From: an uncultured Verrucomicrobia subdivision 3 bacterium
Lineage (GTDB): Bacteria > Verrucomicrobiota > Verrucomicrobiia > Limisphaerales > UBA11358
DNA: 64,000 nucleotides
Direction of reading: 5' to 3'
Assembly: GCA_903918885.1 (NCBI GenBank)
Contig: CAIXFY010000004.1
Location: 1,166 to 65,165 of the forward strand
Shown: positions 4,184-22,534 of the stretch, one piece after another
How the letters are laid out: every line of letters begins with the position of its first letter
Position numbering within the stretch: the first letter of the stretch is position 1
Position numbers and translations under genes: made by a program
The notes under the pieces: generated by a model
The model's input: the letters and a program-made list of their open reading frames with translations, nothing else
The model's database searches: none
What the model was told of the DNA's origin: nothing

Positions 4184-5163
4184 GCGGCGGGCGGTTTTTT
4201 CTCCTGAAGATTGATGCCCGCACTATCACGCAACACCCAAAGCGGGCGGCCTTTCACTTCCTCGTAAATGCGTCCGATGTATTCGCCGAGGATGCCGAGG
4301 CAGATGAGTTGCACGCCGCCGAGGAATAAAATTGAAATCACAATCGTCGGAAAACCGGCGCCGGGTGCGAGGCCAATTTTGGAAAATTGCGTCGAAAAGA
4401 TTTTTTGTGCCAGCGTGAATACAACGCCAAAGAATGCAAACGCGGACGACCATAAGCCGAGATAGGTTGCAATCCGTAGTGGCGTGGCGGAAAACGAAAA
4501 AAGTCCGTCCATGGCCAGCGCGAATGATTTTTTGAAAGTGTATCGCGCTACGCCAGCGGCCCGTGCGGGGCGGTCAAACTCAATTGAAGTTTGACGGAAG
4601 CCGCACCATGTCCGCAGTCCGCGCAGGTAACGGCTGCGCTCGGGTAGCGAGTTCATCACGGCGACAACTTTTTTGTCGAGCAGACAGAAATCACCGGCGT
4701 CAGGAGACATGGGCAGCGGCGTCATTTTTTCGAGCAGCCGGTAGAAGCCCCACGCGAGAATTTTTTTCACCGGCGGATCGTGCCGCTCTCTGCGAATGGC
4801 AATCACGACTTCAAATCCAGCGCGCCATTTTTCAAGCAGATGCGCAATCTCGTCTGGCGGATCCTGCAAATCGGCATCAATAATCACGACGCAATCACCG
4901 GTCGCAAAATGCAGTCCGGCGCTGACGGCAATCTGATGGCCGAAGTTGCGTGCAAAGGAAACATAGTGCCAGCGCGGATCTCCGGCGTTTTTAGCTTTGA
5001 GCAGTTCCCAAGTGCGGTCGCTCGAGCCGTCGTCCACGCAGATGATTTCGTATTCGGCCGACCATGTTGCCGCGACTTCGCCGAGGTTTTGAAACAAGAC
5101 TGGCAGCACCGCTTCTTCGTTGAAGCAAGGCACAATGATGGAAATTTTTCCCGGACTGGCCAT
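4180..5163 (-). CDS. GT2 polyprenyl-phosphate glycosyltransferase (ArnC/GtrB/DPM1-like) with C-terminal transmembrane helices
   Basis: ISIIVPCFNEE, VDDGSSDRT and IIDADLQDPP motifs, followed by two C-terminal hydrophobic helices. ATG at 5163 is preferred over the TTG at 5208. Confidence 0.85.
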   Translation of the reverse strand: MASPGKISIIVPCFNEEAVLPVLFQNLGEVAATWSAEYEIICVDDGSSDRTWELLKAKNAGDPRWHYVSFARNFGHQIAVSAGLHFATGDCVVIIDADLQDPPDEIAHLLEKWRAGFEVVIAIRRERHDPPVKKILAWGFYRLLEKMTPLPMSPDAGDFCLLDKKVVAVMNSLPERSRYLRGLRTWCGFRQTSIEFDRPARAAGVARYTFKKSFALAMDGLFSFSATPLRIATYLGLWSSAFAFFGVVFTLAQKIFSTQFSKIGLAPGAGFPTIVISILFLGGVQLICLGILGEYIGRIYEEVKGRPLWVLRDSAGINLQEKKPPAA

Positions 5164-5243
5164 CTTGCAGGTGGTAGTTACCAATTTGTCTTTTAACCGC
5201 AAGCTCAAAACGGCGGCGGCGCGGATAATGGCCTTGTTCTGTT

Positions 5244-5729
5244 TTAATCCCGAAAGTTTCCAAATGACACGGCCACGGGAAAATCATGCCCGCGCACGGC
5301 GGCGATGACGGCTTGCAAATCGTCGCGGCTCTTGCCGGTCACGCGCACTTCGTCGCCTTGAATCTGCGTTGTCACTTTGAATTTACCGTCGCGGATGAAG
5401 CCGGTGATTTGCTTGGCAACGCTGGCTTCGATGCCGTTTTTTAATTTGATGCTCTGTCGGGCATGACCGAGCGGCGAGAGGTCGGGCTCGCATTGCTCGA
5501 TGCTTTTCATGCTCACGCCGCGCTTGGCGAGCTTGCCCACCACGATTTCGTTAAGCGTGCTGGCTTTGTAGGCGTCCTCGGCGGACATTTTAATTTCCGT
5601 TTTCTCCAAAAGGATTTCCCACTTGCTGCCCTTGAAGTCGAAGCGGTTGGCGAGTTCCTTTTTGGCCTGGTTGACGGCGTTCTCCACTTCCATGGAGTTG
5701 ATTTGTGAGACGATGTCGAATGAAGGCAT
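5244..5729 (-). CDS. yajQ: YajQ-family nucleotide-binding protein (UPF0234)
   Basis: 161 aa starting MPSFDIVSQINSMEVENAVNQAKKELANRFDFKGS, which is the canonical YajQ N-terminus. The ORF-track version reaching 5948 is a 5' over-extension. Confidence 0.85.
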   Translation of the reverse strand: MPSFDIVSQINSMEVENAVNQAKKELANRFDFKGSKWEILLEKTEIKMSAEDAYKASTLNEIVVGKLAKRGVSMKSIEQCEPDLSPLGHARQSIKLKNGIEASVAKQITGFIRDGKFKVTTQIQGDEVRVTGKSRDDLQAVIAAVRGHDFPVAVSFGNFRD

Positions 5730-5837
5730 GGCGTGAGCTTGGCAAATTTCACCCGATTTGTCATCAAAACGTGACATGGTTTGGAATTGAACCAGATGGT
5801 TTCTTTTGCGACTTTCTAGTGATTCACAGCCAGCCCA

Positions 5838-6560
5838 ATGCAAGAAATCAAATCCAACGCCGACCTCAAGCCCTGCCTCACTGCGGTGATGCCGGTCTAT
5901 AACGAAGCTGCGACCATTGCCGAAGTCGTTCAAGTGGTGCTTGCGCAACAGCCGGTGCAGCAGCTTGTCATTGTGGACGACTGCTCAACGGACGGGACTT
6001 GGGACAAGCTCCTTCCGCTCGCGCAAAACGAGCCGCGCATCAAACTCATCCGGCACGAGGTGAATCAGGGCAAAGGCGCGGCCTTGCGCACGGGCATCAG
6101 CCACGCGACCTCGGAACTAGTCATCATTCAGGATGCGGATCTGGAATACGACCCGACCGAATATTGTCGGCTGCTTGCGCCGATTCTGGCAGGCAAGGCG
6201 GATGTGGTTTTTGGGTCGCGGTTCATCGGTTCCGACGCGCATCGGGTTTTGTATTTTTGGCATTCGGTCGGCAACAGTTTTCTAACGTTGTGTTCCAACA
6301 TGGCGACGGATTTGAATCTCACGGACATGGAAACGTGCTACAAAGTTTTTCGCCGCGAAATCATCCAGAAAATTGCGATCGAAGAAAACCGGTTCGGCTT
6401 TGAACCGGAAATCACGGCCAAAGTGGCCACGTTAAAAGTTCGCATTTACGAGGTGGCCATCTCTTATTATGGACGCACTTATGCGGAAGGGAAAAAAATC
6501 GGCTGGCGCGACGGCTTCCGCGCTTTGTGGTGCATCTTGAAATATAATTTCTTCCGCTGA
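5838..6560 (+). CDS. Soluble GT2 glycosyltransferase (dolichyl/polyprenyl-phosphate sugar synthase-like)
   Basis: VMPVYNEAATI, VDDCSTDGT and IQDADLEYDP motifs in 240 aa. First gene of a tightly packed operon. Confidence 0.85.
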   Translation: MQEIKSNADLKPCLTAVMPVYNEAATIAEVVQVVLAQQPVQQLVIVDDCSTDGTWDKLLPLAQNEPRIKLIRHEVNQGKGAALRTGISHATSELVIIQDADLEYDPTEYCRLLAPILAGKADVVFGSRFIGSDAHRVLYFWHSVGNSFLTLCSNMATDLNLTDMETCYKVFRREIIQKIAIEENRFGFEPEITAKVATLKVRIYEVAISYYGRTYAEGKKIGWRDGFRALWCILKYNFFR

Positions 6561-6562
6561 CC

Positions 6563-8464
6563 ATGTCCGCTGTCGTTCAATTGTGGGTTTGGTTTTGCGC
6601 TTACTTGAATTTGGCCGGCTGGATTTTATCGGTGTGCCACCAGCTTGATAGTCTGGGCTATTGCATTGCTTTGGTGGTTTTCATTCTGACTACCCATGCC
6701 CTTCGACATCACTTCACAGTTCAGGATAACTTTTCAGACTGGCTGCGAAAATCCCGGCGGCGATTCCGAAAAATTCTGTCGGCGCTATTTTTGGTGGTCG
6801 CCAGCCTCGTATTTTTGGGCGGAGTTTTATACGCGCCGACCAACTATGACGCGCTCACCTACCGCTTGCCCCGTGTCTTGAACTGGCTCGCCGCTGGCCA
6901 CTGGTTCTGGGTTCCCACCATCAACGACCGTATGAATTATTCCGCCCCGGCTACGGAATGGCTGATCGCCCCGCAGCTCGCGATTTTTCATTCCGACCGG
7001 ACTTTGTTTTTGATGAATGCGGTCAGTTTTTTACTCATGCCAGGACTGCTTTTCTCCATCTTTCGGCAGACGGGCGTGGCCCGCAAAGTCGCCTGGACTT
7101 GGATGTGGATTTTGCCATTAGCTTGCGGTTACGCCACGCAGGCCGGCAGTTTGGGAAATGATCTTACCGGAGCCGTATTTGGTCTGGCCTCCGTGCATTT
7201 TGGTTTGCGCGCGCGGCGAACCGGAAAACTTCAAGATGTCTGTCTGGCGTTGCTGGCCGCCGCGTTGCTGACCGGCGTCAAGGTTTCCAACCTGCCGTTG
7301 GTGCTACCATGTCTGGTGGCGGTCTGGCCTGCACTTACGCTGTTCAAAAGAAATCTGTTGGCGGGTTTGGCTCTGCTGGGAATTACCTTTTTGGTTTCCG
7401 CTGGACCAATCATGGCGTTGAATGAATTTTATACCGGAAGTTGGACCGGCGATCCGCATAACTTAAGCCAGCTTCAGGCCAAAAATCCGGTGGCCGCTGC
7501 GTTTGGCAATAGCCTGCTGCTGCTCCAACAATCATTCCTGCCCCCCGTGCTGCCATCGGCGCATGAATGGTATCAACGCTTCAACGAAATTCTTCCCGCC
7601 GCGTGGCATGCCTGGCTCAGGCAAGATTTTCCACGCTACTATCTCGGCGGATTTAACGAACTGCCCAGCGAAGAAAATGCCGGACTCGGTTGCGGCATCT
7701 GTATCACGACGGTTATTTTAATGGCCGCCGCCTTTTTGCCGCTCACCCGCAAAAAAATCTGGAGCTGGGATGCCAGTTTGGCCATTGGCCTAGCGGCGTG
7801 GATTGCCTTTTTCGCTTTCATGCTCAAGATGGGATCCGAGGCGACCGCCCGACTTTTGCTTCCCTATTATCCACTGATGTTCCTGATGATTTTGCGGTCG
7901 CCAGTCCAAAACTTCTGGTTACATTTTCGAGTTTGGAAGATCTGGCTGATGCTCGTTGCTTTAAGTGTTTTGCCCGCCATTGTTTTTTCACCGTCACGAC
8001 CTTTGTGGCCGGCGCTCACAGTGTCACAGGCGTTGTTGAAAAAATATCCCGACAACCATCTGGCGCAGAGAATTGCCGCCGTTTATTCCGGCTACGCGGC
8101 GCGCAACGACCCACTCAAACCGCTACGGGCTCCTTTGCCGGGAAAAATTCAAAAAGTTGGTTTTATCGCCGGTTCCAACGACACGGAATATTCCTTGTGG
8201 CGGCCGTTCGGAACGCGCACGGTCGTATGTCTGCGCCAGCATCGCGCGCGAACCGGTCTGCTGTTGCCTGACGACATCGAATGGATCGTCATTCGCAAAC
8301 CGGTGTGGAGCGAGGCATCAGAAATCCCGTTCGACGTGTGGTGCGAACAACACCATGCGCAAAACGTGGTCACTGCGTCGATTGTCACGATTGTCGGCCG
8401 CGGCCCGGAAGAATGGTGTTTGGTGCATCTGGATCGCGCGCCCGTTCCGGCTGGCCGCCAGTGA
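6563..8464 (+). CDS. Large polytopic membrane protein, putative GT-C-fold glycosyltransferase using a lipid-linked sugar
   Basis: 633 aa, many transmembrane helices, an acidic/aromatic first-loop segment (PTNYDALTYRLPRVLNW) and a soluble C-terminal domain of about 150 aa. It starts 3 nt after the GT2 stop. Confidence 0.5.
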   Translation: MSAVVQLWVWFCAYLNLAGWILSVCHQLDSLGYCIALVVFILTTHALRHHFTVQDNFSDWLRKSRRRFRKILSALFLVVASLVFLGGVLYAPTNYDALTYRLPRVLNWLAAGHWFWVPTINDRMNYSAPATEWLIAPQLAIFHSDRTLFLMNAVSFLLMPGLLFSIFRQTGVARKVAWTWMWILPLACGYATQAGSLGNDLTGAVFGLASVHFGLRARRTGKLQDVCLALLAAALLTGVKVSNLPLVLPCLVAVWPALTLFKRNLLAGLALLGITFLVSAGPIMALNEFYTGSWTGDPHNLSQLQAKNPVAAAFGNSLLLLQQSFLPPVLPSAHEWYQRFNEILPAAWHAWLRQDFPRYYLGGFNELPSEENAGLGCGICITTVILMAAAFLPLTRKKIWSWDASLAIGLAAWIAFFAFMLKMGSEATARLLLPYYPLMFLMILRSPVQNFWLHFRVWKIWLMLVALSVLPAIVFSPSRPLWPALTVSQALLKKYPDNHLAQRIAAVYSGYAARNDPLKPLRAPLPGKIQKVGFIAGSNDTEYSLWRPFGTRTVVCLRQHRARTGLLLPDDIEWIVIRKPVWSEASEIPFDVWCEQHHAQNVVTASIVTIVGRGPEEWCLVHLDRAPVPAGRQ

Positions 8465-8527
8465 TCTGTTCTTGACGCGATCCGTATTCAGATAAGAGCC
8501 TTGGGCTTGGCGGATACCAAATTTTTT

Positions 8528-9460
8528 ATGCCAGATACAACTACGCCCACACCGAGCATTGCTGTGGTCATTCCCTGTCACCAAGAGGCGCTGACTATTG
8601 GCAAAGTCGTTTCCGATTTTCGCCGCGAACTGCCGGCTACGCAAATTTTTGTTTTCGACAACAACTGCACTGACGCCACCGCCGCGCTTGCCGCGCAAGC
8701 CGGTGCCATCGTCATCCGCGAAAAACGTCAGGGCAAAGGCTTCGTCGTCGCCGCAATTTTTTCCAAAGTAGACGCGGACATTCTCGTGATGGTGGACGGC
8801 GATGACACCTACGAGGCCGGCCACGTCCACAAACTCCTGGAACCGATTTTGCGCGGCGATGCCGATATGACCGTCGCCACTCGCCTGAGTGACCGCAGCG
8901 ACAAATCCTTCCGGCCGCTGCATGTCGCCGGCAACCAACTCGTCTGCCGCGTCATCAACTGGATGTATCAATCGGAATTGACTGATATTTTTTCTGGCTA
9001 CCGCGCCTTCACCCGCGACTGCGTCCGCCAAATTCCCATCACTGCACGCGGATTTGATGTGGAAACGGAACTCACCTTGCAGGCGCTGTATCGCGGTCAG
9101 GTCATCAAAGAAATGCCCGCGCCGTATCGCGCCCGGCCGGAAGGCAGCTTCTCCAAGCTCAACACTTTTAGCGACGGATTTCTGGTCTTGCTACGGCTGT
9201 TTTTAATTTTGAAATCCTACAAGCCGCTCACTTTTTTTGGCGGCGTCAGCATCATTTTATTTTTGCTGGGACTGGCCGTCGGTTCCCTGCCGGTGCACGA
9301 TTATCTGACCGACCTAAATCATTATGTGCATCGCGTGCCCAGCGCCATTCTCGCCGCCGCGCTGGTGTTGCTTGCATTTTTCTCGCTCGGCCTTGGTCTG
9401 ATTTTGAACAGCGTCAACCTCCGTCTGCTCGAACTCGAGAAGCTCATCACTAAACGCTGA
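8528..9460 (+). CDS. GT2 glycosyltransferase with two C-terminal transmembrane helices (GtrB/ArnC-like)
   Basis: IAVVIPCHQEA, VFDNNCTDAT and MVDGDDTYE motifs plus a hydrophobic C-terminus. ATG at 8528 is preferred over the TTG at 8501. Confidence 0.8.
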   Translation: MPDTTTPTPSIAVVIPCHQEALTIGKVVSDFRRELPATQIFVFDNNCTDATAALAAQAGAIVIREKRQGKGFVVAAIFSKVDADILVMVDGDDTYEAGHVHKLLEPILRGDADMTVATRLSDRSDKSFRPLHVAGNQLVCRVINWMYQSELTDIFSGYRAFTRDCVRQIPITARGFDVETELTLQALYRGQVIKEMPAPYRARPEGSFSKLNTFSDGFLVLLRLFLILKSYKPLTFFGGVSIILFLLGLAVGSLPVHDYLTDLNHYVHRVPSAILAAALVLLAFFSLGLGLILNSVNLRLLELEKLITKR

Positions 9461-9461
9461 A

Positions 9462-11330
9462 ATGGACATCGCCCCGCTCAAAACTTTACTGCTGAAAGGC
9501 GACCTGGAATTCTGGGCGCAATTGCAATCGCGCACGCGCGCGGCGGTGGATTTTGAGGAATTATTTCTGCTTTCGTCGCTCCGCAAAAAGGCGCACGCGC
9601 GCAAGCTGACACGACCCAAACCGCCGAAAGAAAAACTTCGGCTCGCCATCATCGGCGGTTGCAGTTTGTATCCGCTGCACGAACTCGTCGAGCACCTGTG
9701 TGAAGTGGAAAATTTTCCGGTCGAACTTTGGCAGGGCGATTACGACAATTATCTTTCCGAAATCATGGACGACGCCAGCGGGCTTTATGCGTTCGCACCC
9801 AACGTCGTTTTCCTACTGCCCGCCGAGCGCCGCTGTTTTTACACTGGCAAACTCACCGACCCGCGCGAACACGTGCAGGCCGAAGCGCAGCGCGTGGTGG
9901 ATTCCCTTTTGGAACTTGCGCGCAAGGTCAACGGGCAGACCGGCGCGGAAGTCATCACCACTAACTTCATGCTACCCGTGCGCCACGATCTCGGCGCGTT
10001 CCGTTCGCGCACGCTCGGCTCGGACTGGTCGTTTCGCAAATGGGTAAACCTCGAACTCGGCCTGAACGCCCCGTCATTCCTGCATATTTGCGATTGGGAG
10101 TTTTTGGCGAATCGAATTGGCGGCCTCGCTGCGCGCGACGAACGTTCGTGGTTTGAAAGCAAACAGCCGTGTTCCTCCGCATTACTTGTGGAACTCGCGC
10201 GCGAAGTTGCGCAGTTGATTTTTTCCCTGAAACGCGCGCCAAAAAAAGTTTTGGTTCTCGATTTGGACAATACGCTTTGGGGCGGCGTGGTGGCGGATGA
10301 TGGTTTGGAAGGCATCGAACTTGGCGACACCTCGCCGCGCGGCGAGGCGTTCAAGGCGTTTCAAAAATACATCGCCGCGCTTAAGCCGCGTGGCGTATTG
10401 CTGGCCGTGTGCAGCAAAAATGATTTTGCCAAAGCCGCCGAGCCGTTTGAAAAACATCCCGACATGGTTTTGAAAATGGAGGACATCGTTTCCTTCAAGG
10501 CGAATTGGGAGCCGAAGTCGGAAAATATCCGGGCGATGGCGGCGGAATTAAATCTTGGCCTCGACAGTTTTGTTTTTGTGGACGACAACCCGGCGGAGAT
10601 TGAGATCGTCCGCCAGTTTGTTCCGGAAGTGACGACGATTTTGCTCGGGCCGGACCCGGCGGATTATGTCGCGCAACTCGCCGACTGCCGGTTGTTTGAA
10701 CCGCGCAATATCACGGGCGAAGACGCCGAGCGCACACAGCAGTATCGTTCCGACGTGCAGCGAAAAAATCTGGAGGCGAGTGTCACGGACATGGCGTCGT
10801 ATCTCGAATCGCTGCAAATGGCGGCGGTCATCAGCGAGTTCACGCCGGTGGATGTGCCGCGCCTGTCGCAGCTTATCAACAAGAGCAACCAGTTCAACCT
10901 CACCACGCGCCGCCGCAGCGAGGCGGAAGTCAGTGCGGTGATGAATGATAAAAATTTCATCGGCTATTCCGTGCGGCTCAAAGACAAGTTTGGCGACCAC
11001 GGTTTGATTTCCATCGTTATCGGGGAAAAATCCGGCGACATGTTGCAGGTGGACACTTGGCTGATGAGCTGTCGCGTGCTTAAGCGCGGCGTGGAAGAGG
11101 AAGTGTTGAACGAGTTGGTCCGGCTGGCAAAATCAAAAAATTGTTTGCGACTTGAAGGGGCTTTTCTGCCGACGCCGAAGAACGAAATGGTGCGTGATTT
11201 CTACCTGCGGATGGGATTTACTTTGACCGCCGAATCGGAAACGAAACGTGAATTTGAACTGCGGCTGGAAAATTTTCTGCCCGTGCCAACGAAAATTAAA
11301 ATCATCCGCCGCGCCTATGAATCAAGCTGA
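9462..11330 (+). CDS. FkbH-like HAD-IIIC phosphatase domain protein with C-terminal GNAT-like domain
   Basis: HAD nucleophile motif VLVLDLDNTLWGG, then AVCSKND and FVDDNPAE. The C-terminal acyltransferase-like region carries WLMSCRVLKRGVEEE. The N-terminal domain of about 250 aa is typical of FkbH-like proteins in glycan loci. Confidence 0.8.
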   Translation: MDIAPLKTLLLKGDLEFWAQLQSRTRAAVDFEELFLLSSLRKKAHARKLTRPKPPKEKLRLAIIGGCSLYPLHELVEHLCEVENFPVELWQGDYDNYLSEIMDDASGLYAFAPNVVFLLPAERRCFYTGKLTDPREHVQAEAQRVVDSLLELARKVNGQTGAEVITTNFMLPVRHDLGAFRSRTLGSDWSFRKWVNLELGLNAPSFLHICDWEFLANRIGGLAARDERSWFESKQPCSSALLVELAREVAQLIFSLKRAPKKVLVLDLDNTLWGGVVADDGLEGIELGDTSPRGEAFKAFQKYIAALKPRGVLLAVCSKNDFAKAAEPFEKHPDMVLKMEDIVSFKANWEPKSENIRAMAAELNLGLDSFVFVDDNPAEIEIVRQFVPEVTTILLGPDPADYVAQLADCRLFEPRNITGEDAERTQQYRSDVQRKNLEASVTDMASYLESLQMAAVISEFTPVDVPRLSQLINKSNQFNLTTRRRSEAEVSAVMNDKNFIGYSVRLKDKFGDHGLISIVIGEKSGDMLQVDTWLMSCRVLKRGVEEEVLNELVRLAKSKNCLRLEGAFLPTPKNEMVRDFYLRMGFTLTAESETKREFELRLENFLPVPTKIKIIRRAYESS

Positions 11331-11562
11331 AGTCATCGCCCAGTTGCAGACCATTTTTGACACCGTGTTTCTGGAGCCGGTGGTGCTCACGCCCGCCATC
11401 AGCGCCAACGACGTGCCGGAATGGGATTCGCTTACGCACATCTCGCTGATGGTCGCGGTGGAGAAATCCTTCGGCGTCCGTTTTCGCGTCGGCGAGGTGG
11501 AAAATGCCAAGAACGTCGGAGAATTCGCGGAGCTCATTCTCAAGCGCAAACAGGAAGCATGA
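11317..11562 (+). CDS. Acyl/peptidyl carrier protein
   Basis: 81 aa with a phosphopantetheine-site-like motif VPEWDSLTHISLMVAVE. It overlaps the FkbH-like stop by 14 nt. Confidence 0.8.
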   Translation: MNQAEVIAQLQTIFDTVFLEPVVLTPAISANDVPEWDSLTHISLMVAVEKSFGVRFRVGEVENAKNVGEFAELILKRKQEA

Positions 11563-12668
11563 TGCGCCCGGCATTCGGCTCAAACAAGTCCGCTGCAGCC
11601 TTTGCGCTGTTGCTGCTGCTCTTGCTCCTCTCGCCGGTGTTGGTCGGGAAAAATTTTCTGCCGCCGCGCGAGCAAAGTTATTCCGTGCAGGCCTGGGGCA
11701 ACGGTCCGTATCCGTGGATTCGCAACCAGATTTTCGAGGAGACCAACGCGATTGACATCGCGTTCATGGGGTCGTCGCACATCTTCAACGCTATCAACAC
11801 GCCGCAGGTGCAGGCGGAGCTTTCCAAAAAGCTTGGGCGACCGGCGGTGGTGTGCACCATCGCGTGGGGCGGCGCTGGCTACGACGGCTTGTATTTCATC
11901 GCGCAGGATTTGCTGGCGCATCGCCGGGTGCGGATGATGGTCTTCTACGATGAAGATCCGGGTGTCGGCGCCCGCAACTCGGCGTCGGTCTCGTGGTTCC
12001 GCTGGGCGGATGACGCCGCCGCGTTGGGCGGATTGCCATTGCCCGAGCAGGCGTTGTTTTACTTCGCGTCCATTGTGGGAATGCCCCGAAACTTGTTGTG
12101 TGCACTACGCCCAAATCTGCCGGCACCACTCATCACGGATAAAAAAAATTACTGGGAAACGATTGCGGATGCGCCCAATCCCGTCACGCAGCTCGGGGCG
12201 TTATCGTATGGCAAGGGATTTGCGCCCACGCCGATGGCCGCCGCCGCACCCTTTGAGAAATTTATTCCCGATGTCGAGGCGACGCCGGTGGAGGTCGCGA
12301 TCTGGTCACCGGAAACCAAAACGAATTTTACTTTTTCCACCGCACCTGTTCCTGACTGGCAGACTCATTTTGCGCGGCAACTGGGGGAATTGTTTCGCAA
12401 CCACGATGTCCAGCCGGTGATGCTCCAGCTGCCGGTGCTGGCGGATGCGCGTGCGGCGGTGCTGGTGGAGCGCACGGATTGGACAAAAATATTTGGCGGC
12501 GATTTCAAATTGATCGGCATTCCCCCGACAAGCATGTTCGGTAGTCTGACGGACGGTGAAGTGCGCAAACTCTACGGCGACCCGTTTCATTTTAATCGCA
12601 ATGGTCAGGAATATTTTACCCGGCTCATTACTCCGGCGCTGCTGCAAATTTATGAAGCCCGCCATTGA
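11559..12668 (+). CDS. Membrane-anchored extracytoplasmic SGNH-like protein, DltD-like candidate O-acyltransferase
   Basis: N-terminal hydrophobic anchor AAAFALLLLLLLLSPVLVG, a Ser-block motif IAFMGSSHIF near the N-terminus and a D-x-x-H block (GDPFHFNRNG) near the C-terminus. The ATG overlaps the ACP stop (ATGATG). Confidence 0.55.
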   Translation: MMRPAFGSNKSAAAFALLLLLLLLSPVLVGKNFLPPREQSYSVQAWGNGPYPWIRNQIFEETNAIDIAFMGSSHIFNAINTPQVQAELSKKLGRPAVVCTIAWGGAGYDGLYFIAQDLLAHRRVRMMVFYDEDPGVGARNSASVSWFRWADDAAALGGLPLPEQALFYFASIVGMPRNLLCALRPNLPAPLITDKKNYWETIADAPNPVTQLGALSYGKGFAPTPMAAAAPFEKFIPDVEATPVEVAIWSPETKTNFTFSTAPVPDWQTHFARQLGELFRNHDVQPVMLQLPVLADARAAVLVERTDWTKIFGGDFKLIGIPPTSMFGSLTDGEVRKLYGDPFHFNRNGQEYFTRLITPALLQIYEARH

Positions 12669-12777
12669 ACGCCTCAGTTATGCACTCATCGTCGTGTTGG
12701 CTCTTGCCGCGCTGTGGCTGGTGTTTAATGCGCCGGCCAATTTCCTGAACGCCCGCGTGGTCTATCAGGGCTTCTGA
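12652..12777 (+). CDS. 41-aa single-pass membrane peptide, DltX-like (not in the ORF track as a separate gene)
   Basis: MKPAIERLSYALIVVLALAALWLVFNAPANFLNARVVYQGF has one transmembrane helix and the extreme C-terminus VVYQGF, resembling the DltX F-I-Y-N-E-F end. It overlaps the upstream stop by 17 nt and ends 2 nt before the MBOAT ATG. Confidence 0.55.
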   Translation: MKPAIERLSYALIVVLALAALWLVFNAPANFLNARVVYQGF

Positions 12778-12779
12778 CC

Positions 12780-13997
12780 ATGGAAACACCTTATCTGCTC
12801 CTCGGCCTACTGTCCTATGTCGTTCTTGGACGCCTGACGATGCGCCACCTCACGGGCGTGAGGCGCGAATCCGTTTTTGCCGCGCTGAACGTAACCAGCG
12901 TCTTCTTTTTCCTTTTTTACGGCGGCAAGGAGCATTTCGTTTTGCGCTTTATTATTTATCTGGCGCTCATCGTCGGGCTGTATCTCGTGCTGCGTTTGTT
13001 TGCCCAAAAGCGCGGCGCGTGGCCTTGGCTGGCGTTCGCCGCGCCCCTCGCGGCGCTCATCATCGTGCGCTATGTGCCGGGTGAATGGTATGTGGCGCTC
13101 GGCCACGCGCTGGGCAAAACGTGGCGTGGCGTGCCAAACATGATCGGTATTTCGTATCTTGCATACCGGTGCAGCCGGCTGGTGTTGGAAATTCGCAACG
13201 GCGTGGTGAAGCAACCCAATTTTCCAGAATATGTGAACTTCGCCTTTTTCCTACCCACGATGCCCGTGGGCCCGATTAACACCTACCAAAATTTCCGGCG
13301 CGGCTTCGTGGAAAAATACGACGTGCCGCTGGGGCGCGCGGCGTTGCGCATCCTCGTGGGCGCAGTCAAATATCAGTTCCTTGCCGGTCTTTGCAACCAA
13401 CTCACTTACTCCGGCCTGCTGCTCGACGATCATCCGCATCACTGGGTCGACTTGCCGGTGGCGATGCTGTTCTACTATTTGTTTTTGTATCTGAATTTTT
13501 CCGGTTTCTGCGACATGGCCATCGGTGCCGCCGCGCTGATGGGCATTCCCGTGCCGGAAAATTTCGACAATCCCTTCGCCGCGCGTAACGTGAAGGACTT
13601 CTGGAACCGCTGGCACATCACGCTCTCGGCGTGGATGCGCGACGTGTTTTTTTCGCCGCTCTCGAAGTATCTCGTCGGCAAAATGGGCATCCAACTTACC
13701 AACCACGCAGTCGCGTTGACCATCGCCATCGTCTTCCTGCTGGTTGGCATTTGGCACGGTGCAGGATGGAACTTTGCGGCTTACGGTGCGGTGCATGCGC
13801 TTGGCGTGGTGGCAAACCACTACTACACGGTTTTCCTGAAGAAAAAACTGGGGCGTGAAAAATTCAAGGCCTATAACGAAAACCGCTGGATTCGTGCCGC
13901 CGCCGCCGCGGGCACATTCTGCTACTGCGGTGCGAGCTTGATTTTCTTTGCCAACACGTTTCCGCAAATCAAAGATATTTTCTCCAACCTGCAATGA
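12780..13997 (+). CDS. MBOAT-family membrane O-acyltransferase (DltB/AlgI-like)
   Basis: FWNRWHITLSAWMRDVFFSPL and the conserved-His region VGIWHGAGWNF. About 10 transmembrane helices. Confidence 0.9.
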   Translation: METPYLLLGLLSYVVLGRLTMRHLTGVRRESVFAALNVTSVFFFLFYGGKEHFVLRFIIYLALIVGLYLVLRLFAQKRGAWPWLAFAAPLAALIIVRYVPGEWYVALGHALGKTWRGVPNMIGISYLAYRCSRLVLEIRNGVVKQPNFPEYVNFAFFLPTMPVGPINTYQNFRRGFVEKYDVPLGRAALRILVGAVKYQFLAGLCNQLTYSGLLLDDHPHHWVDLPVAMLFYYLFLYLNFSGFCDMAIGAAALMGIPVPENFDNPFAARNVKDFWNRWHITLSAWMRDVFFSPLSKYLVGKMGIQLTNHAVALTIAIVFLLVGIWHGAGWNFAAYGAVHALGVVANHYYTVFLKKKLGREKFKAYNENRWIRAAAAAGTFCYCGASLIFFANTFPQIKDIFSNLQ

Positions 13998-14410
13998 ACT
14001 CGCATCTGACATTTCACCATTTCGGCCTCGCCGTGCGCCGGCCAGCCGAGGCGCGTAAATTTGTTGCCCGTCTTGACTACGTGATGGGCGAATCCGTCTT
14101 TGACCCGGCGCAGAACGTGCATCTCCAGCTCTGCACGCACACCGCACATCCGGCGGTGGAAATAATCTGGCCCGGCGATACCGCCGGCCCGGTGGACAAG
14201 TTCGTTCAGCGCCACGCCTCCGGCATCATTTATCATTTGTGTTATGAGACGGATAATCTCACTGCCGCGCTCGCGGGATTGGAGGCTGCGGGATTGCGCC
14301 CGATGTGTGTTTCACCTGCCACGCCCGCGCTGCTGTTCGAAGGACGCATGGTTTCGTTTTACAACGTTGTCGGCATCGGGTTGGTGGAAATATTAGCGGC
14401 GTCACATTGA
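13994..14410 (+). CDS. VOC-superfamily protein (glyoxalase I / methylmalonyl-CoA epimerase-like)
   Basis: 138 aa. The N-terminal FHHFGLAV motif is typical of VOC metal-binding modules. The ATG overlaps the MBOAT stop (ATGA). Confidence 0.65.
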   Translation: MNSHLTFHHFGLAVRRPAEARKFVARLDYVMGESVFDPAQNVHLQLCTHTAHPAVEIIWPGDTAGPVDKFVQRHASGIIYHLCYETDNLTAALAGLEAAGLRPMCVSPATPALLFEGRMVSFYNVVGIGLVEILAASH

Positions 14411-14504
14411 GCCAAAAATTGAACAGTGAAAGGCATAGCGACTGCGTGCAGTGTTTTTCACTTTCCCGCTTGGGTTTGATATGCGTGCCCCTTTGCGTCG
14501 AAAA

Positions 14505-15779
14505 TTATTTTGCCGCCGATAAATTATGCGCGGCCAGCCATTGTTTGATGGGCTGGAGATCGACGGTGAAACGATAATCGTAACTGGCGGAGATGATTAG
14601 GGGATGCCAGTTGAAACCCACCACTTGGGAAATCCACTCGAGATAGCCATCCAGCCCAAACTCCACTGGCATGATGGCCATGACCTCGCAGCCGGGCTTG
14701 CAGAAAATGCAATTGGTGAATCCGCTGCCAAACATGCCAGCGACGGCGTCTGCCTCGGAAAATAATTTGATTTGTTGAGCGAATGAAAGTTGCATCACGT
14801 CCACGACCGTCCAGCCGTGGTCGGTGAAACATTTTTCCAGTTCCAGCCGGTTCAGCGGCTCGCGCGACAATCCCAAGCGCTGGAGATAAATCTTCTTGGG
14901 GCCGGAATAAGTCGCGTCCCGTTTCGGTAAAAAAGTCCGGCGGAGAAAATCCATGCCATAGGGATTGTAGCCTTGCAGCATCGTGGTGAAGGAACTGAAG
15001 TAGTAATTTTCCACATGCAGATGCCGCTCCGTGACCGGCCGGCAGCGTTCCCGCAGGCCCATGAGTTCCAGCGCCTCCATTTCGTTCCGGTGCAATCGTG
15101 GCGGGATTAAGATGTGGGTGTCGGCCGGAAATTCCGTAAGAAGCGCCAGCCGCGGCAGGGCATCCAGCAGCCAGTGGGTGTAATTCGGATAGGCGTTGAG
15201 ATTGGCGGGCGTCCAGCGGGAAACGATGCTCGTCCAATTTCCCTGCAAGCGCACCGGCGGCGGCAGTCGAAGATAGCGGGCGGACGGATCTTGCCACCAG
15301 CGGCCCGGCCCATAGGCGGATTCGATGCAAAGCTGTTTTTTTTCCAACATCAACCCAAGGCTCTCCGCGACCAACCGCACTTCCGAATGTTGGCTCCAAA
15401 AAATGGGCCAAGGCTGTTCCTTGTGCTGATAATATCCGCCTCTGGCCATCAGTGAATCCTCCGCGACCGCCGGGCAGCCTTGGTCATGCAGCACAATTTT
15501 CCCTGGGATTTTTGGGGAGCTCGTGCGCAGGGCTTGATAGACGGAATACGTTCGTGCTGGCGGGCCAAAATTTTCACGGTCACGCCAGACGTGTCGCCAA
15601 AAAACCAAGAATGCTTCCCAGAATCCCGCCGCAAGTGTCGCTTGCAACCATTTGACCACGGCATGCCCGGTTCGCCAATGTCGCAGTTTGAAAGCGACTC
15701 GGGATTTTATTTTTTGCAGCGATTGCACGGTAAGAAAAATAAAGGTCGGAAACCAAAGTTCAAAGTTCAAACTGCGCAT
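14505..15779 (-). CDS. GT61/DUF563-family glycosyltransferase
   Basis: THWLLDALPRLALL and the C-terminal region GMFGSGFTNCIFCKPG are typical of DUF563 capsular-type glycosyltransferases. Confidence 0.7.
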   Translation of the reverse strand: MRSLNFELWFPTFIFLTVQSLQKIKSRVAFKLRHWRTGHAVVKWLQATLAAGFWEAFLVFWRHVWRDRENFGPPARTYSVYQALRTSSPKIPGKIVLHDQGCPAVAEDSLMARGGYYQHKEQPWPIFWSQHSEVRLVAESLGLMLEKKQLCIESAYGPGRWWQDPSARYLRLPPPVRLQGNWTSIVSRWTPANLNAYPNYTHWLLDALPRLALLTEFPADTHILIPPRLHRNEMEALELMGLRERCRPVTERHLHVENYYFSSFTTMLQGYNPYGMDFLRRTFLPKRDATYSGPKKIYLQRLGLSREPLNRLELEKCFTDHGWTVVDVMQLSFAQQIKLFSEADAVAGMFGSGFTNCIFCKPGCEVMAIMPVEFGLDGYLEWISQVVGFNWHPLIISASYDYRFTVDLQPIKQWLAAHNLSAAK

Positions 15780-15916
15780 CAATTTTGCGCGTCGTCATCA
15801 CCGAGCAAGGTTTTTGCCCCTCAAGTTTCAGATTTCCTTTCCGGCTTTGGGTTGGCACGATGCATTTGACCATGAGTCGTTTTGCCGTAGCCCGCAAATT
15901 TCAGATTTAATTTTTA

Positions 15917-17284
15917 ATGCTGCACCACCTGCACCGATTTCGCCGCTGGGCGGGCGTGGACCGCGCGGTGTTTTTTTCCAACGCCGCGCAGGTCACGCGG
16001 CTGTTCACCGGCCCCATCACCATGGCGCTGGTGTTGCGTTATCTCACGCCGGAAATCCAAGGTTATTTTTACGCCTTTTCAGGCGTGGTGGCCATGCAGG
16101 TTTTTTTGGAAATGGGATTCTCGCAGAACATTCTCCAGTTCGCCTCCCATGAATACGCCAAGCTCCATTTCTCGCCGGCTGGAACGCTGGTGGGCGACCG
16201 CGTGGCGCAGTCGCGGTTGATTTCACTGGGGCGGCTGGCGTTTCGCTATTACGCCATCGCGGCCGGTATTTTTCTGGCGGCCATCGGCATTGGAGGCCAC
16301 ATTTTTTTTGCCAATTCCGGCCAACATGGAGTCGCTTGGCAAGGCGCGTGGTGGGTCATTGCCGTTACCGCCGCTGGTTCGCTGGCCATCAATCCCGCTT
16401 GGTCATTACTGCAGGGCTGCAATCAGGTGGCTGTGGTGGCCAAATTCAATTTCTGGGCGGCGCTGGCCACGTTTGGAGCCAACGCGCTGGCGTTGATTTG
16501 CGGCGCGGGGATATATGCGTCCGCTATCGGCGCGGCATTCAGTTTACTCTTAAATACGGCCTATTTGCTCTGGCGTTGGCGGTTTTTTTTCGGCCAGTTT
16601 CTGGAAATTCCGCAACATGGCGAGGTGTCGTGGCGTCATGAAATCTGGCCGTTCCAATGGCGCATTGCCGTGAGTTGGATGTCCGGTTACTTCGTCTTCG
16701 ACATCATCAATCCGATTGCGTTTTATTTTTGCGGGCCGGTGGCGGCTGGGCGGCTGGGTATGAGTCTGCAACTGGTTCGCATGATTGCCAATATCTCGCT
16801 GCAATGGATCAATACCAAAGGACCGCAGTTTGGCATGCTGGTCGCGCGCCGGGCGTGGACGGAACTGGACGCGCTCTGGCGACGGAGCACAATTCAGATG
16901 TTTGTATTTTACCTGCTGGGCTACGCGGCATTTCTGGCGGCCATTCCTTTTATCGGGCTGCTGCTGCCAAAAATTCCGGCGCGCTTGGCTTCCTTTGAAG
17001 TCAATGCATGGCTGGGCGGGGCACTCGTCACCCAAGTTTTGATTGGGGCGATGGCCATGGAACTGCGGGCGCACAAGCGGGAGCCGTTCATGTGGATGTC
17101 GGTCCTGAATGCAGTGTTGAGCGTCGCCTTTATGCTGCCTTTGACCTGGGCAGGCGGAGTGAGTGGCGAGGCCATGGGCTATGCGCTGGCGCTTTGGGCG
17201 GTTTTTGTTCCGAGTATTTTCATCTACCGGCGGAAGCGGATAGAGTATCGCATCCACGCCGACAGTTCGGCGGGAGCGAGCTAG
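15917..17284 (+). CDS. wzx: Polysaccharide flippase (Wzx / MOP superfamily)
   Basis: 455 aa with about 12 transmembrane helices. The N-terminal region has the layout of oligosaccharide flippases, and it lies within a glycan locus. Confidence 0.65.
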   Translation: MLHHLHRFRRWAGVDRAVFFSNAAQVTRLFTGPITMALVLRYLTPEIQGYFYAFSGVVAMQVFLEMGFSQNILQFASHEYAKLHFSPAGTLVGDRVAQSRLISLGRLAFRYYAIAAGIFLAAIGIGGHIFFANSGQHGVAWQGAWWVIAVTAAGSLAINPAWSLLQGCNQVAVVAKFNFWAALATFGANALALICGAGIYASAIGAAFSLLLNTAYLLWRWRFFFGQFLEIPQHGEVSWRHEIWPFQWRIAVSWMSGYFVFDIINPIAFYFCGPVAAGRLGMSLQLVRMIANISLQWINTKGPQFGMLVARRAWTELDALWRRSTIQMFVFYLLGYAAFLAAIPFIGLLLPKIPARLASFEVNAWLGGALVTQVLIGAMAMELRAHKREPFMWMSVLNAVLSVAFMLPLTWAGGVSGEAMGYALALWAVFVPSIFIYRRKRIEYRIHADSSAGAS

Positions 17285-20931: not shown

Positions 20932-20992
20932 CATTTGAAAATTGAAATGCGTCGGAGAAGGTTTAATCTCCGAAGAAATACGAGTTGAAACC

Positions 20993-22528: not shown

Positions 22529-22534
22529 ACCCGA

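Follow-up and report, generated by a model that had tools for sequence, protein, structure and literature searches.

A six-gene cassette in a Verrucomicrobia genome that may encode a Dlt-like acyl relay loaded by an FkbH-type enzyme

Positions 9462–14410 of the window (64,000 nt of contig CAIXFY010000004.1, from an uncultured Verrucomicrobia subdivision 3 bacterium) carry a cassette of six genes, G1–G6. We consider it moderately probable that their products constitute an ACP-dependent MBOAT/Tyr-shuttle/SGNH relay and that this relay transfers glyceryl, or a 2-hydroxyacyl group derived from it, to an LPS-type glycan; within this relay, we infer the acyl group carried, its Tyr-bound intermediate and its final acceptor. 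The Gram-positive Dlt system, which hands an acyl group from one side of the membrane to the other, has the same build, whereas here an FkbH-type protein is the predicted loader in place of an adenylating enzyme. Because the carrier is predicted to be charged by this FkbH-type protein, probably with a glyceryl unit from glycolysis, the product is most likely a cell-surface glycan bearing a novel type of ester. The L-glycerate ester borne by gellan provides a chemical precedent (PMC9104527). An FkbH-loaded, Dlt-like relay had been proposed in the initial annotation, and the computational tests named beforehand for it all gave favorable or neutral results.

Reading of the sequence recovered all six ORFs on the + strand at the coordinates claimed for them, together with every motif quoted (DLDNTLWGG, CSKND, VDDNP, WDSL, GSSH, DPFH, VVYQGF-stop, WNRWHITLS, and WHGAGW). 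The genes are consecutive and coupled, their junctions being overlaps of 4–17 nt or a 2-nt gap: G1/G2 overlap by 14 nt (G2 ATG 11317, G1 stop 11330); G2/G3 by 4 nt at ATGA, with AGGAAG upstream (G3 ATG 11559, G2 stop 11562); G3/G4 by 17 nt (G4 ATG 12652, G3 stop 12668); G4/G5 are separated by 2 nt (G4 stop 12777, G5 ATG 12780); and G5/G6 overlap by 4 nt (G6 ATG 13994, G5 stop 13997). The description of a coupled block of six holds for G1–G6 but not for its upstream limit: a GT2 gene (8501–9460, + strand) ends 1 nt 5′ of G1, so that the block extends beyond this edge and the GT2 gene probably shares an operon with G1.

G1 (9462–11330, + strand) encodes a 622-aa FkbH-family loader comprising an FkbH_N domain (residues ~61–251), a HAD-IIIC phosphatase domain (262–387) and a GNAT-fold C-terminal domain (~450–620). 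Its assignment to the FkbH/HAD-IIIC family was upheld by TIGR01686 (313.4 bits; cut-off 146.65) and TIGR01681 (75.3 bits; cut-off 35.75), and residues 56–416 match PDB entry 3slr (E 3.5e-60, PDB sequence search), which Foldseek also retrieved (E 5e-22) among more than 400 matches at E ≤ 0.001. GNAT acetyltransferases fill the listed top 50 Foldseek matches for the C-terminal domain, in agreement with its designation as GNAT-like. The HAD residues are D267xD269xT271, S318, K346 and D374-D375, while Cys537 sits in an MSCRV motif within the GNAT-fold domain, a cysteine motif common to G1 and distant homologues; the motif residues of G1 are unchanged across 29 orthologues. Characterized FkbH enzymes such as OzmB convert 1,3-bisphosphoglycerate to phosphoglyceryl-S-Cys, dephosphorylate it through the HAD domain and pass the glyceryl unit to an ACP. 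This mechanism and its glyceryl-ACP product have been described (PMC9057759, PMC7489565).

The adjoining gene, G2 (11317–11562, + strand), encodes a discrete 81-aa acyl carrier protein in which Ser38 of EWDSLTH is the predicted phosphopantetheine site. That G2 is a carrier protein with a WDSL serine is supported by matches to PDB ACPs (best 2lml, E 2.6e-14), on which we base the ACP identity; the PF00550 (PP-binding) profile narrowly missed its cut-off (20.7 versus 20.8 bits), and no DltC model match was obtained among Pfam/NCBIfam profiles. Counterparts in related loci are 67–94% identical and always directly 3′ of the FkbH gene, and FkbH-adjoining ACPs of Sinorhizobium meliloti and Rhodobacteraceae are 38–41% identical to G2.

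Turning to the membrane components, G5 (12780–13997, + strand) encodes a short, 405-aa DltB-like MBOAT bearing the WNRWHITLS and WHGAGW histidines, with no C-terminal extension, extra C-terminal helices or Tyr motif of its own. PF03062 (67.4 bits) confirmed its annotation as an MBOAT, and TIGR04091 (DltB) scored 204 bits, under the equivalog cut-off of 375. As anticipated, its nearest relative is DltB (PDB 6bug, E 5.6e-39; 8jem, E 6.4e-39), with which residues 40–391 are colinear and both His blocks matched. To our knowledge, DltB is the only MBOAT with a carrier-protein donor. A Tyr motif is found on G4 (12652–12777, + strand), a 41-aa single-pass microprotein; a basic N-terminus and one TM helix precede its 15-residue tail, which closes with V-V-Y38-Q-G-F41-stop. 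All 28 related loci have an ORF of 41–43 aa directly 5′ of the MBOAT gene, which persists though identity to the window G4 drops to ~37%, and gene callers also called a G4-type peptide in loci L037 and L038. The Tyr and the C-terminal Phe are invariant in all 28 (consensus x-V-Y-Q-G-F); the position that opens the motif holds Val, Ser, Ala, Ile or Pro, not Phe. An FXYXXF acyl-Tyr shuttle has been established experimentally for DltX and PatA (PMC12148441); G4 has a similar Tyr-x-x-Phe tail but not the leading Phe. The earlier likening of G4 to DltX is thus sustained by the conserved peptide, its tail and its position but not by the Pfam DltX profile, which gave no match, and we propose by analogy that G4 may act as a DltX-like acyl shuttle.

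G3 (11559–12668, + strand) encodes a 369-aa extracytoplasmic protein with an SGNH fold, anchored at its N-terminus and resembling DltD in architecture; it has GSS (G70-S71-S72, numbered on the 368-aa product P0001), WGGxG and [D/N]xxH343 motifs. It gave no Pfam, NCBIfam or PDB sequence match; its top PDB profile match was a non-significant one to PatB, in an alignment that pairs the Ser and His blocks. The AF2 model is confident (pLDDT 90.6), and Foldseek placed DltD 3bma first (E 6.3e-5, probability 1.0), followed by 6pfx, 7dxm and 6o93, the matches being DltD and SGNH esterases, with TM scores of only ~0.35. Divergent relatives match PF19040 (SGNH; 5 of 56) and PF16822 (AlgX; 3 of 56) weakly, and GSS and H343 are kept down to ~30% identity. 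Fold, motif and position therefore favor the annotated DltD-type SGNH protein, while a significant DltD sequence-profile match is missing; the labels DltC, DltD and DltX for G2, G3 and G4 are best read as architectural analogies, not profile-based membership. G3 is the fastest-diverging part and is duplicated in several genomes (one to three copies per cassette), so it probably sets acceptor specificity, and one relay may feed several terminal transferases.

The final gene, G6 (13994–14410, + strand), encodes a 138-aa VOC (glyoxalase/epimerase-fold) protein, as annotated (PF13669, 53.8 bits). It scored 35.8 bits against TIGR03081 (methylmalonyl-CoA epimerase; cut-off 115), and PDB comparisons returned glyoxalase I (3hdp, E 2.9e-11) and methylmalonyl-CoA epimerase (3rmu, E 2e-5). 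We propose that G6 is an accessory protein acting on acyl-ACP. A full-length or nearly full-length VOC gene occurs in nine of the 28 loci and in L037, and VOC genes adjoin FkbH/ACP genes on Rhodobacteraceae and C. perfringens plasmids; being missing from most loci, it would have a peripheral role.

A survey of gene neighborhoods, as the initial annotation had suggested, showed that in 23 of 28 loci, and also in L037, FkbH and ACP genes adjoin the membrane module. The order FkbH–ACP–G3 (one to three copies)–41–43-aa peptide–MBOAT recurs in these 23 of 28 independently assembled genomes which, with the peptide present in all 28, indicates that the cassette is more than chance. Three loci (L002, L013 and L027) have a G3–peptide–MBOAT module with no FkbH or ACP gene within 10 kb; L010 retains just a remnant of an ACP, and in L015, which does have an ACP, a methyltransferase occupies the usual FkbH position. 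Since the genome of L013 has a second locus (L026) with the full set, and in view of the L010 remnant, the FkbH-less modules appear secondary. Cassette hosts are mostly assigned to Verrucomicrobiota, a diderm phylum; the window's host is given as a soil/freshwater Verrucomicrobium. The combination recurs independently beyond this lineage, with fused-motif versions in cultured Alphaproteobacteria: FkbH–ACP–MBOAT–SGNH-like clusters lie on S. meliloti pSymB and, with a VOC gene, on a Rhodobacteraceae plasmid. In both, the MBOAT itself bears the Tyr motif as a fusion, ending FLYQGF and FIYFNF, respectively.

Together, these proteins may operate as follows. By family precedent, G1 would use 1,3-bisphosphoglycerate to form phosphoglyceryl-S-Cys537, its HAD domain would strip the phosphate, and the glyceryl unit would pass to the phosphopantetheine arm on G2 Ser38. 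Where present, G6 might then change the thioester at C2, perhaps most plausibly by epimerization to L-glyceryl. Homology to DltB suggests that acyl-ACP would dock at the cytoplasmic face of G5, where the conserved WHGAGW histidine would catalyze acyl transfer, by way of the MBOAT tunnel, to Tyr38 of G4, whose VVYQGF tail would lie on the periplasmic side. The fold and motifs of G3 suggest that the acyl-Tyr tail would swing to this membrane-anchored protein, whose GSS serine (S71 or S72, with H343) would accept the acyl group and esterify a hydroxyl of a periplasmic glycan. From its context, the likeliest glycan is an LPS O-antigen or a core-type polymer made by the surrounding locus.

The likeness of G5 to DltB and the identical four-part membrane architecture would also suit an ordinary Dlt D-alanylation system with its DltA ligase encoded elsewhere. 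We regard this as extremely improbable: an AMP-binding signature was not found in the 29 loci (502 kb), in keeping with the annotated lack of a DltA-like ligase, in 23 of 28 loci the place of the loader is taken by FkbH, G5 falls well short of the DltB equivalog cut-off, G2, G3 and G4 lack matches to the DltC, DltD and DltX models, and the hosts are mostly assigned to a diderm phylum, with an LPS-type locus. It is somewhat less remote, though still very unlikely, that the MBOAT takes acyl-CoA (acetyl-CoA), like PatA/AlgI, while FkbH and ACP merely share the operon and serve a separate cytoplasmic acylation, such as the N-glyceroylation of amino sugars that has been suggested for the flagellar glycans of Campylobacter, where cj1302 is an FkbH-domain gene of the flagellar glycosylation locus (PMC7099621). 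FkbH–ACP pairs do occur with cytoplasmic acyltransferases (a WcbI-family enzyme in Niveispirillum, other enzymes in Subdoligranulum) and with PKS/NRPS genes, so adjacency alone is no proof that they feed the MBOAT; the three FkbH/ACP-less modules, L010 and L015 point the same way. However, the cassette encodes no cytoplasmic acyltransferase able to use acyl-ACP, FkbH–ACP adjoins MBOAT and SGNH-like genes in two phyla with different gene orders, the FkbH-less modules look secondary, and the closest relative of G5 is the one MBOAT with a known carrier-protein donor.

More serious, although still unlikely, is that the relay runs as described with a cargo other than glycerate, either another small acyl unit or a glyceryl-ACP converted before transfer: D-lactyl or pyruvyl via the VOC protein, or a methylated glyceryl via methyltransferases of the locus. 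The core of G1 is only 28% identical to a homologue from a PKS/NRPS cluster and G1 has an extra 260-aa N-terminal domain; G6 is as near to glyoxalase I, which yields a lactoyl thioester, as to methylmalonyl-CoA epimerase; and the window has methyltransferase genes close by, while in L037 and L015 such genes adjoin the cassette. Set against this, the HAD and Cys motifs of G1 are intact, and the cassette of most loci lacks a VOC gene as well as any dehydrogenase or dehydratase. We give rather less credence to an acceptor that is not LPS-type (peptidoglycan, a glycolipid, a polyprenyl-linked intermediate, a glycoprotein or another periplasmic or outer-leaflet molecule). Known MBOAT–SGNH pairs modify peptidoglycan, alginate, cellulose and teichoic acids (PMC12148441), and the cassette, whose flanks vary from genome to genome, behaves as a mobile module. 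The coupled GT2 gene and a nearby gene for an unclassified 633-aa polytopic membrane protein (6563–8464, + strand) would also suit the modification of a lipid-linked or post-export sugar. The GT2 product is of polyprenyl-phosphate hexosyltransferase type (PF00535, 61.6 bits; best NCBIfam match AglJ at 236 bits, under its cut-off, with a further match to Dol-P-hexose transferase) with C-terminal TM helices, and a GT2 gene lies directly 5′ of FkbH in L005, L008 and L037. The 633-aa protein, which has no Pfam, NCBIfam or PDB sequence match, could be a GT-C-type partner of polyprenyl-P-sugar synthases; homologues occur near the cassette in L001, L005, L008 and L024, and L037 has a 654-aa membrane protein at the equivalent position. 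An LPS-type acceptor nevertheless accords better with the full O-unit toolkit flanking the cassette in the window (GT2, GT61, GT8 and GT9 genes, a Wzy_C/O-antigen-ligase-like gene and a Wzx-like gene) and with its recurrent neighbors: a Wzy_C/O-antigen-ligase-like gene paired with a GT9 heptosyltransferase gene adjoins it in four further genomes (L007, L009, L017 and L019), and Wzy_C-like genes alone do so in L020.

The cassette comprises six genes on the + strand that encode an FkbH-type loader (G1, 9462–11330, 622 aa), an ACP (G2, 11317–11562, 81 aa), a membrane-anchored SGNH-like protein (G3, 11559–12668, 369 aa), a microprotein (G4, 12652–12777, 41 aa), an MBOAT protein (G5, 12780–13997, 405 aa) and a VOC protein (G6, 13994–14410, 138 aa). 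The coupling described in the initial annotation is plain in the DNA, with overlaps of 14, 4, 17 and 4 nt and a single 2-nt gap. A GT2 gene (8501–9460) ends 1 nt before G1 and is itself preceded, across gaps of 36 and 2 nt, by a gene for a 633-aa membrane protein and a further GT2 gene, a spacing so close that the coupled block probably starts near 5838. A scan of 5000–16000 for consensus promoters and terminators was uninformative, with counts at or below shuffle expectation.

Related loci were collected by a pattern scan seeded from G3 and taking one genome per species, which yielded 28 loci, mostly in Verrucomicrobiota MAGs. Identity to the window is 67–86% for FkbH, 67–94% for the ACP, 51–83% for the MBOAT and 40–64% for G3, the fastest-evolving part of the cassette. 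FkbH and then ACP genes lie immediately upstream of G3 in 23 of the 28 loci, a recurrence that agrees with the earlier grouping of FkbH, ACP and MBOAT genes into one unit. G3 is present in two or three tandem copies in L001, L002, L005 and L014, the paralogues being 45–64% identical to the window G3. L005 carries a second shuttle-peptide gene between its G3 copies, and L017 has two tandem membrane modules with one intact FkbH gene, the second module (ACP–G3–peptide–MBOAT) following a 60-aa FkbH remnant. These tandem G3 paralogues and the extra peptide and module copies suggest that several acceptor specificities are served by one loader. No FkbH or ACP gene occurs within 10 kb of G3–peptide–MBOAT in L002, L013 and L027; the MAG that contributed L013 also carries a complete set, at L026. 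The genes upstream in FkbH-less loci were considered as a source of an alternative loader and set aside as unrelated (beta-CASP RNase, T2SS F, nucleotidyltransferase, GT2 and HSP90). L010 looks like a decayed or rearranged cassette copy: its truncated ACP (4660–4780) keeps the first ~24 residues intact, then loses frame and runs into G3, and the contig encodes no FkbH protein. In L015, a methyltransferase gene precedes that of the ACP. Bifidobacteriaceae, Pseudomonadales or Sulfotelmatobacter is the label given to several MAGs whose verrucomicrobial cassettes are nearly identical, probably through mistakes in binning or taxonomy and not because the cassette was transferred horizontally.

G1 was initially annotated as an FkbH/HAD-IIIC enzyme, and it exceeds the curated cut-offs of both relevant models, scoring 313.4 bits against the FkbH-domain model TIGR01686 (cut-off 146.65; residues 261–588) and 75.3 bits against the HAD-IIIC model TIGR01681 (cut-off 35.75). 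Residues 56–416 match 3slr, the N-terminal part of Bacteroides fragilis BF1531 (E 3.5e-60), and the HAD phosphatase motifs D267-L-D269-N-T271, S318, K346 and D374-D375 are invariant among 29 orthologues. The reconstituted FkbH enzyme OzmB converts 1,3-bisphosphoglycerate via phosphoglyceryl-S-enzyme and glyceryl-S-enzyme to glyceryl-ACP, and the same glyceryl-ACP chemistry is predicted by homology for the FkbH-like proteins Mad7 and Mad14 (PMC9057759, PMC7489565). By analogy with the S-enzyme intermediate described in PMC9057759, Cys537 of G1 is a putative site of a glyceryl-S-enzyme intermediate. Its motif, WLMSC537RV, aligns with MSCRV or LSCRA in homologues from S. meliloti, Rhodobacteraceae, C. 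perfringens and B. thuringiensis, the last of which sits inside an NRPS/PKS cluster. The AlphaFold model of G1 is moderate (pLDDT 67, pTM 0.48), derives from a shallow alignment (at least 77% identity) and serves domain-level fold assignment only. Foldseek returned more than 400 matches to it overall at E≤0.001, and GNAT acetyltransferases make up the top 50 listed for the C-terminal domain (target TM 0.6–0.72), as expected for the GNAT-like domain proposed there. The discrete ACP gene G2, which overlaps the 3' end of G1, encodes a small acidic protein containing EWDS38L. Its PP-binding score of 20.7 is just below the 20.8 cut-off, and it matches solved ACPs (best 2lml, E 2.6e-14); its profile similarity is to generic ACPs only, with a DltC-specific model absent among the matches.

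The MBOAT assignment of G5 is secure, with 67.4 bits to PF03062 and the WHGAGW His present. Its sole NCBIfam match is DltB (TIGR04091; 204.4 bits, E 3e-60), below the 375-bit equivalog cut-off, and on sequence comparison we assign G5 as a DltB homologue and not an equivalog. Its alignment to DltB structures (6bug, E 5.6e-39) runs from one end to the other, WNRWHITLS pairing with WNRWHMSLS and WHGAGW with WHGITW. It has the length of DltB and ends in ...KDIFSNLQ, without a Tyr motif. G4 (MKPAIERLSYALIVVLALAALWLVFNAPANFLNARVVYQGF) has a basic N-terminus, a single hydrophobic helix and a 15-residue tail. A 41–43-aa ORF lies directly before the MBOAT gene in all 28 loci, and ORFs of this type are called by independent gene callers too. 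Tyr and the terminal Phe are invariant in these peptides, within the consensus x-V-Y-Q-G-F-stop, and the remainder falls to ~37% identity. Where the FXYXXF motif of DltX, as defined in PMC12148441, begins with F, these peptides have V, S, A, I or P. For the equation of G4 with DltX the observations point both ways: size, a single TM helix, position beside the MBOAT gene and the invariant Y-x-x-F-stop tail speak for it, whereas no Pfam family, DltX included, matched G4, and the DltX model matched none of 26 G4-type peptides even at E≤10.

Searches with G3 against Pfam and NCBIfam, by phmmer and by two profile searches of PDB sequences gave nothing significant and no link to DltD. Close relatives of the protein exceed 300 in number, and the representative library contains 778 clusters at 50% identity, none of them with a Pfam domain. 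An AlphaFold model built on 42 sequences (pLDDT 90.6, pTM 0.90) places a TM helix at the N-terminus, ahead of an alpha/beta domain. Foldseek searches of the PDB with this model ranked six DltD 3bma chains first (best E 6.3e-5, prob 1.0), then DltD 6pfx, 7dxm and 6o93 together with SGNH esterases; TM-scores are low, at ~0.35, and so give support at the level of fold and not of family membership. Close relatives have invariant G70-S71-S72, W102-G-G-x-G106 and H343 (numbered on a 368-aa product); three positions before H343, the 42 sequences have D (28), N (13) or T (1). At ~30% identity, D65 and H343 are invariant and G70 and S72 at least 90% conserved. Among 56 divergent relatives, five match the SGNH model of AT3-fused domains (PF19040) and three that of AlgX (PF16822), all weakly. 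The top PDB matches of the family profile are to PatB, with a non-significant E of 1.2, and align the Ser and His blocks. Based on the fold search, the conserved Ser/His motifs and the weak SGNH and AlgX matches, we assign G3 as a predicted anchored SGNH-type O-acyltransferase-like protein, DltD-like in architecture. The DltD-type SGNH assignment made at the outset has in its favour the fold search, which ranks DltD first, and the invariant GSS and H343, and against it the low TM-scores and the lack of a DltD profile match or a PDB sequence match.

Turning to FkbH clusters outside Verrucomicrobiota, a translated search of plasmids with G1 returned 204 records. A cluster on S. meliloti pSymB (L030, CP050512.1, 815–5849), found in ~40 pSymB records and adjoining a GT2 gene and genes for calcium-binding proteins, encodes an MBOAT, a 409-aa anchored protein, an ACP and an FkbH/HAD-IIIC protein. 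The MBOAT (522 aa) ends in FLYQGF, the ACP is 41% identical to G2 and the FkbH protein 43% identical to G1. GGSTT and DPGH blocks mark the N-terminally anchored 409-aa protein, for which Pfam gave no match, and its annotation as a 'TonB-dependent receptor' is probably wrong; hhalign to the G3 family is not significant, though the Ser block aligns. The Rhodobacteraceae SC52 plasmid pSC52_6 (L033, 6410–12197) carries genes for an ACP, FkbH, an MBOAT of 515 aa ending in FIYFNF, a 358-aa protein, a VOC protein and a hexapeptide acyltransferase, beside sulfotransferase, sulfate adenylyltransferase and AT3-type acyltransferase genes. Its anchored 358-aa protein has GSS and DAAH and aligns with the G3 family (hhalign prob 90%, E 1.8e-6). 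Both alphaproteobacterial clusters resemble the window in FkbH (39–43% identical to G1) and ACP (38–41% identical to G2) and in combining an MBOAT with an anchored protein that bears GSS or GGS and DxxH blocks, and the Rhodobacteraceae cluster keeps the VOC gene as well. Unlike G5, their MBOATs are 515–522 aa long with the shuttle fused and no microprotein, and the gene order differs. At least two phyla thus contain clusters of FkbH, ACP, MBOAT and SGNH-like genes, some with a fused Tyr motif and others with a split one. We found no literature on the S. meliloti or Rhodobacteraceae cluster. FkbH–ACP pairs also occur without an MBOAT: with a WcbI-family acetyltransferase in Niveispirillum, with a VOC protein on a Clostridium perfringens plasmid, with hotdog and SDR genes in Subdoligranulum, and with fatty-acid or PKS-type and NRPS genes on other plasmids. 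FkbH-family ('HAD-IIIC phosphatase') relatives number thousands in public data, and many of those examined lie outside polyketide/NRPS clusters.

G6 falls, as first proposed, in the VOC superfamily (PF13669, 53.8 bits). It scores 35.8 bits against methylmalonyl-CoA epimerase (TIGR03081), under the 114.95 equivalog cut-off, and has sub-threshold similarity to glyoxalase I as well. A full-length or nearly full-length VOC gene is found in 9 of the 28 loci and in the further locus L037, and L001 and L002 retain no more than fragments. More speculatively, G6 might epimerise a 2-hydroxyacyl thioester in the manner of methylmalonyl-CoA epimerase, and the recurring association of VOC, FkbH and ACP genes suggests that the FkbH product is the general substrate of the VOC enzyme. 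The VOC–ACP–FkbH groups without an MBOAT span 5835–9160 of the C. perfringens plasmid locus L035, beside ABC transporter genes and a radical SAM gene, and 7306–12401 of the Subdoligranulum locus L039, beside hotdog and SDR genes and one for a 335-aa protein.

The cassette is set among genes for surface-glycan synthesis. Among the products of the window flanks are five GT2 enzymes, of which two or three resemble polyprenyl-phosphate-sugar synthases (AglJ, PgfS or ArnC, with every score below the cut-off), together with GT61, GT8, GT9 (heptosyltransferase family) and GT4 proteins, a Wzy_C/O-antigen-ligase-like protein, a Wzx-like flippase, methyltransferases and sugar epimerases/dehydratases. 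At 20942–23515, the Wzy_C/O-antigen-ligase-like gene (528 aa) is followed by the GT9 heptosyltransferase-family gene. This pair also stands beside the cassette in L007, L009, L017 and L019, a recurrence that hints at an LPS-linked glycan; L020 has Wzy_C-like genes without a GT9 partner. The pair of GT2 and large membrane protein genes recurs in the flanks of other genomes, which otherwise vary, and the cassette acts like a plug-in module for loci of LPS or EPS type.

We propose that G1 would load an acyl group onto Ser38 of G2, from which it would pass via the G5 His to Tyr38 of G4, then to G3 (Ser71/72 and His343) and finally to a glycan hydroxyl. An ACP-fed MBOAT/Tyr-shuttle/SGNH relay of this kind is likely; with some reserve, we also favour the specific version in which it carries a glyceryl cargo to an LPS-type glycan. 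The relay put forward in the initial annotation is supported by the observed family memberships of G1 and G5, the modelled fold of G3, the conservation of G4 and the lack of an adenylase, and each chemical step in the chain is a prediction. The established counterpart is the Gram-positive Dlt machine, in which DltC gives up its D-Ala to DltB, which moves it onto the invariant Tyr within the FXYXXF motif at the DltX C-terminus, and DltD takes it on its Ser and esterifies it to lipoteichoic acid (PMC12148441). Like Dlt, the window has adjacent genes for a donor that is a carrier protein, for a short MBOAT of DltB type in which both His blocks are kept, for a single-pass microprotein of its own whose C-terminal tail has Tyr-x-x-Phe, and for an N-terminally anchored partner with a predicted SGNH fold for which DltD is the first match of the model. 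It differs in having an FkbH/HAD-IIIC enzyme in the loader position and no DltA adenylase, in a predicted glyceryl rather than D-alanyl cargo, in the motif (x-V-Y-Q-G-F versus F-x-Y-x-x-F), and in a diderm host with an LPS-type locus and a G3 gene that is often duplicated; G2, G3 and G4 fall short of the DltC, DltD and DltX profiles, and the DltB score of G5 is below the equivalog cut-off. An ordinary Dlt system with DltA encoded at a distance would share these likenesses. A PROSITE-type AMP-binding motif was absent from all six frames of the window and the 28 loci (502 kb), and Pfam searches of the genes upstream of the FkbH-less loci found no adenylating ligase. This agrees with the earlier claim that no DltA-like ligase is present and, with FkbH in the loader slot of 23 of the 28 loci, leads us to reject a remote DltA.

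PatA/PatB, AlgI/AlgJ/AlgX and WssH/WssI likewise combine an MBOAT with a periplasmic SGNH transferase acting on a Gram-negative envelope polymer. The pairing that marks PatAB/AlgIJX-type systems, an MBOAT with a catalytic His next to an extracytoplasmic SGNH partner, is seen in G5 and G3 as judged by motifs and fold, and the AlgX and AT3-linked SGNH models are those that divergent G3 relatives weakly match. PatA/PatB-type pairs also use a C-terminal acyl-Tyr shuttle motif, PatA auto-acetylating an FXYXXF-type motif for PatB (PMC12148441). However, PatA/PatB-type MBOATs carry this motif on two extra C-terminal helices and draw on acetyl-CoA, and these systems are described as having neither a carrier protein nor a DltX-like microprotein (PMC12148441), whereas the window has a carrier protein, a dedicated loader and the motif on the separate G4. 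With OzmB-type pathways the window shares an FkbH domain above the trusted cut-off, intact HAD and Cys motifs and an adjacent discrete ACP. Polyketide, tetronate and zwittermicin-type pathways either oxidise their glyceryl-ACP, giving (methoxy)malonyl-ACP, or condense it in the cytoplasm through FabH-like, PKS or NRPS enzymes; the downstream genes of the window encode the putative membrane relay instead, and G1 has an extra 260-aa FkbH_N domain, as in BF1531 (3slr). A polyketide or tetronate cluster was rejected on the absence of KS, FabH-like, FkbK/I/G-type and NRPS genes from 1–31 kb of the window. Glyceroyl-type substituents have been suggested to depend on cj1302 of Campylobacter jejuni. 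This FkbH-domain gene lies in a flagellar glycosylation locus (PMC7099621) and so, like G1, belongs to a surface-glycan locus and not to a polyketide cluster; unlike the window, the cj1302 locus has no MBOAT relay, and the acyl group there is presumably attached to a nucleotide sugar in the cytoplasm.

The ACP-fed relay is predicted to leave glycerate, or a related 2-hydroxyacyl group, in ester linkage to a surface glycan of a Gram-negative cell. Surface-glycan esters can affect charge, phage recognition and immune recognition. To our knowledge, the L-glycerate ester of gellan has no assigned gene, and a wider class of such relays, if one exists, would offer candidate genes for polysaccharide glyceryl esters of this kind. 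Glyceryl esters do exist on bacterial polysaccharides, since gellan has one, and surface-glycan esters can alter gel properties, as shown for gellan (PMC9104527). If the relay operates as proposed, FkbH-family proteins would gain a role beyond natural products, and the G3 family, ~780 clusters at 50% identity without a Pfam model, would gain a function. A recent statement that non-Dlt pathways have neither a carrier protein nor a DltX-like microprotein (PMC12148441, 2025) would be contradicted by the cassette, which encodes a carrier protein and a putative DltX-like microprotein, outside Firmicutes and with a loader predicted to be ATP-independent. Our literature search, partial in coverage, found no description of an FkbH-fed or ACP-linked MBOAT–SGNH system. 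More tentatively, the cassette could represent a widespread, uncharacterised ACP-dependent MBOAT–SGNH class in Gram-negatives, in which FkbH would load a dedicated ACP with an acyl group from glycolytic 1,3-bisphosphoglycerate without adenylation, and glycerate or 2-hydroxyacyl esters would be placed on LPS or exopolysaccharides via an acyl-Tyr shuttle that is split in Verrucomicrobiota and fused in Alphaproteobacteria. Dlt would in that case be one branch of a larger ACP-fed relay family. The related clusters on S. meliloti pSymB and the Rhodobacteraceae plasmid bring this proposal within reach of tractable organisms.

Polyprenyl-phosphate-sugar-synthase-type GT2 genes lie at 5838–9460, together with the gene for the 633-aa polytopic protein, and at 4180–5208 (−). 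The 633-aa protein matched no family and belongs to an uncharacterised one; with the GT2 enzymes, it resembles a Gtr/GT-C-type periplasmic glycosylation module within the operon of the proposed relay. Between the divergent GT2 genes, an ORF at 5244–5948 (−) contains MPSFDIVSQINSMEVENAV in its C-terminal ~160 residues, a part that may be of the YajQ/UPF0234 nucleotide-binding type.
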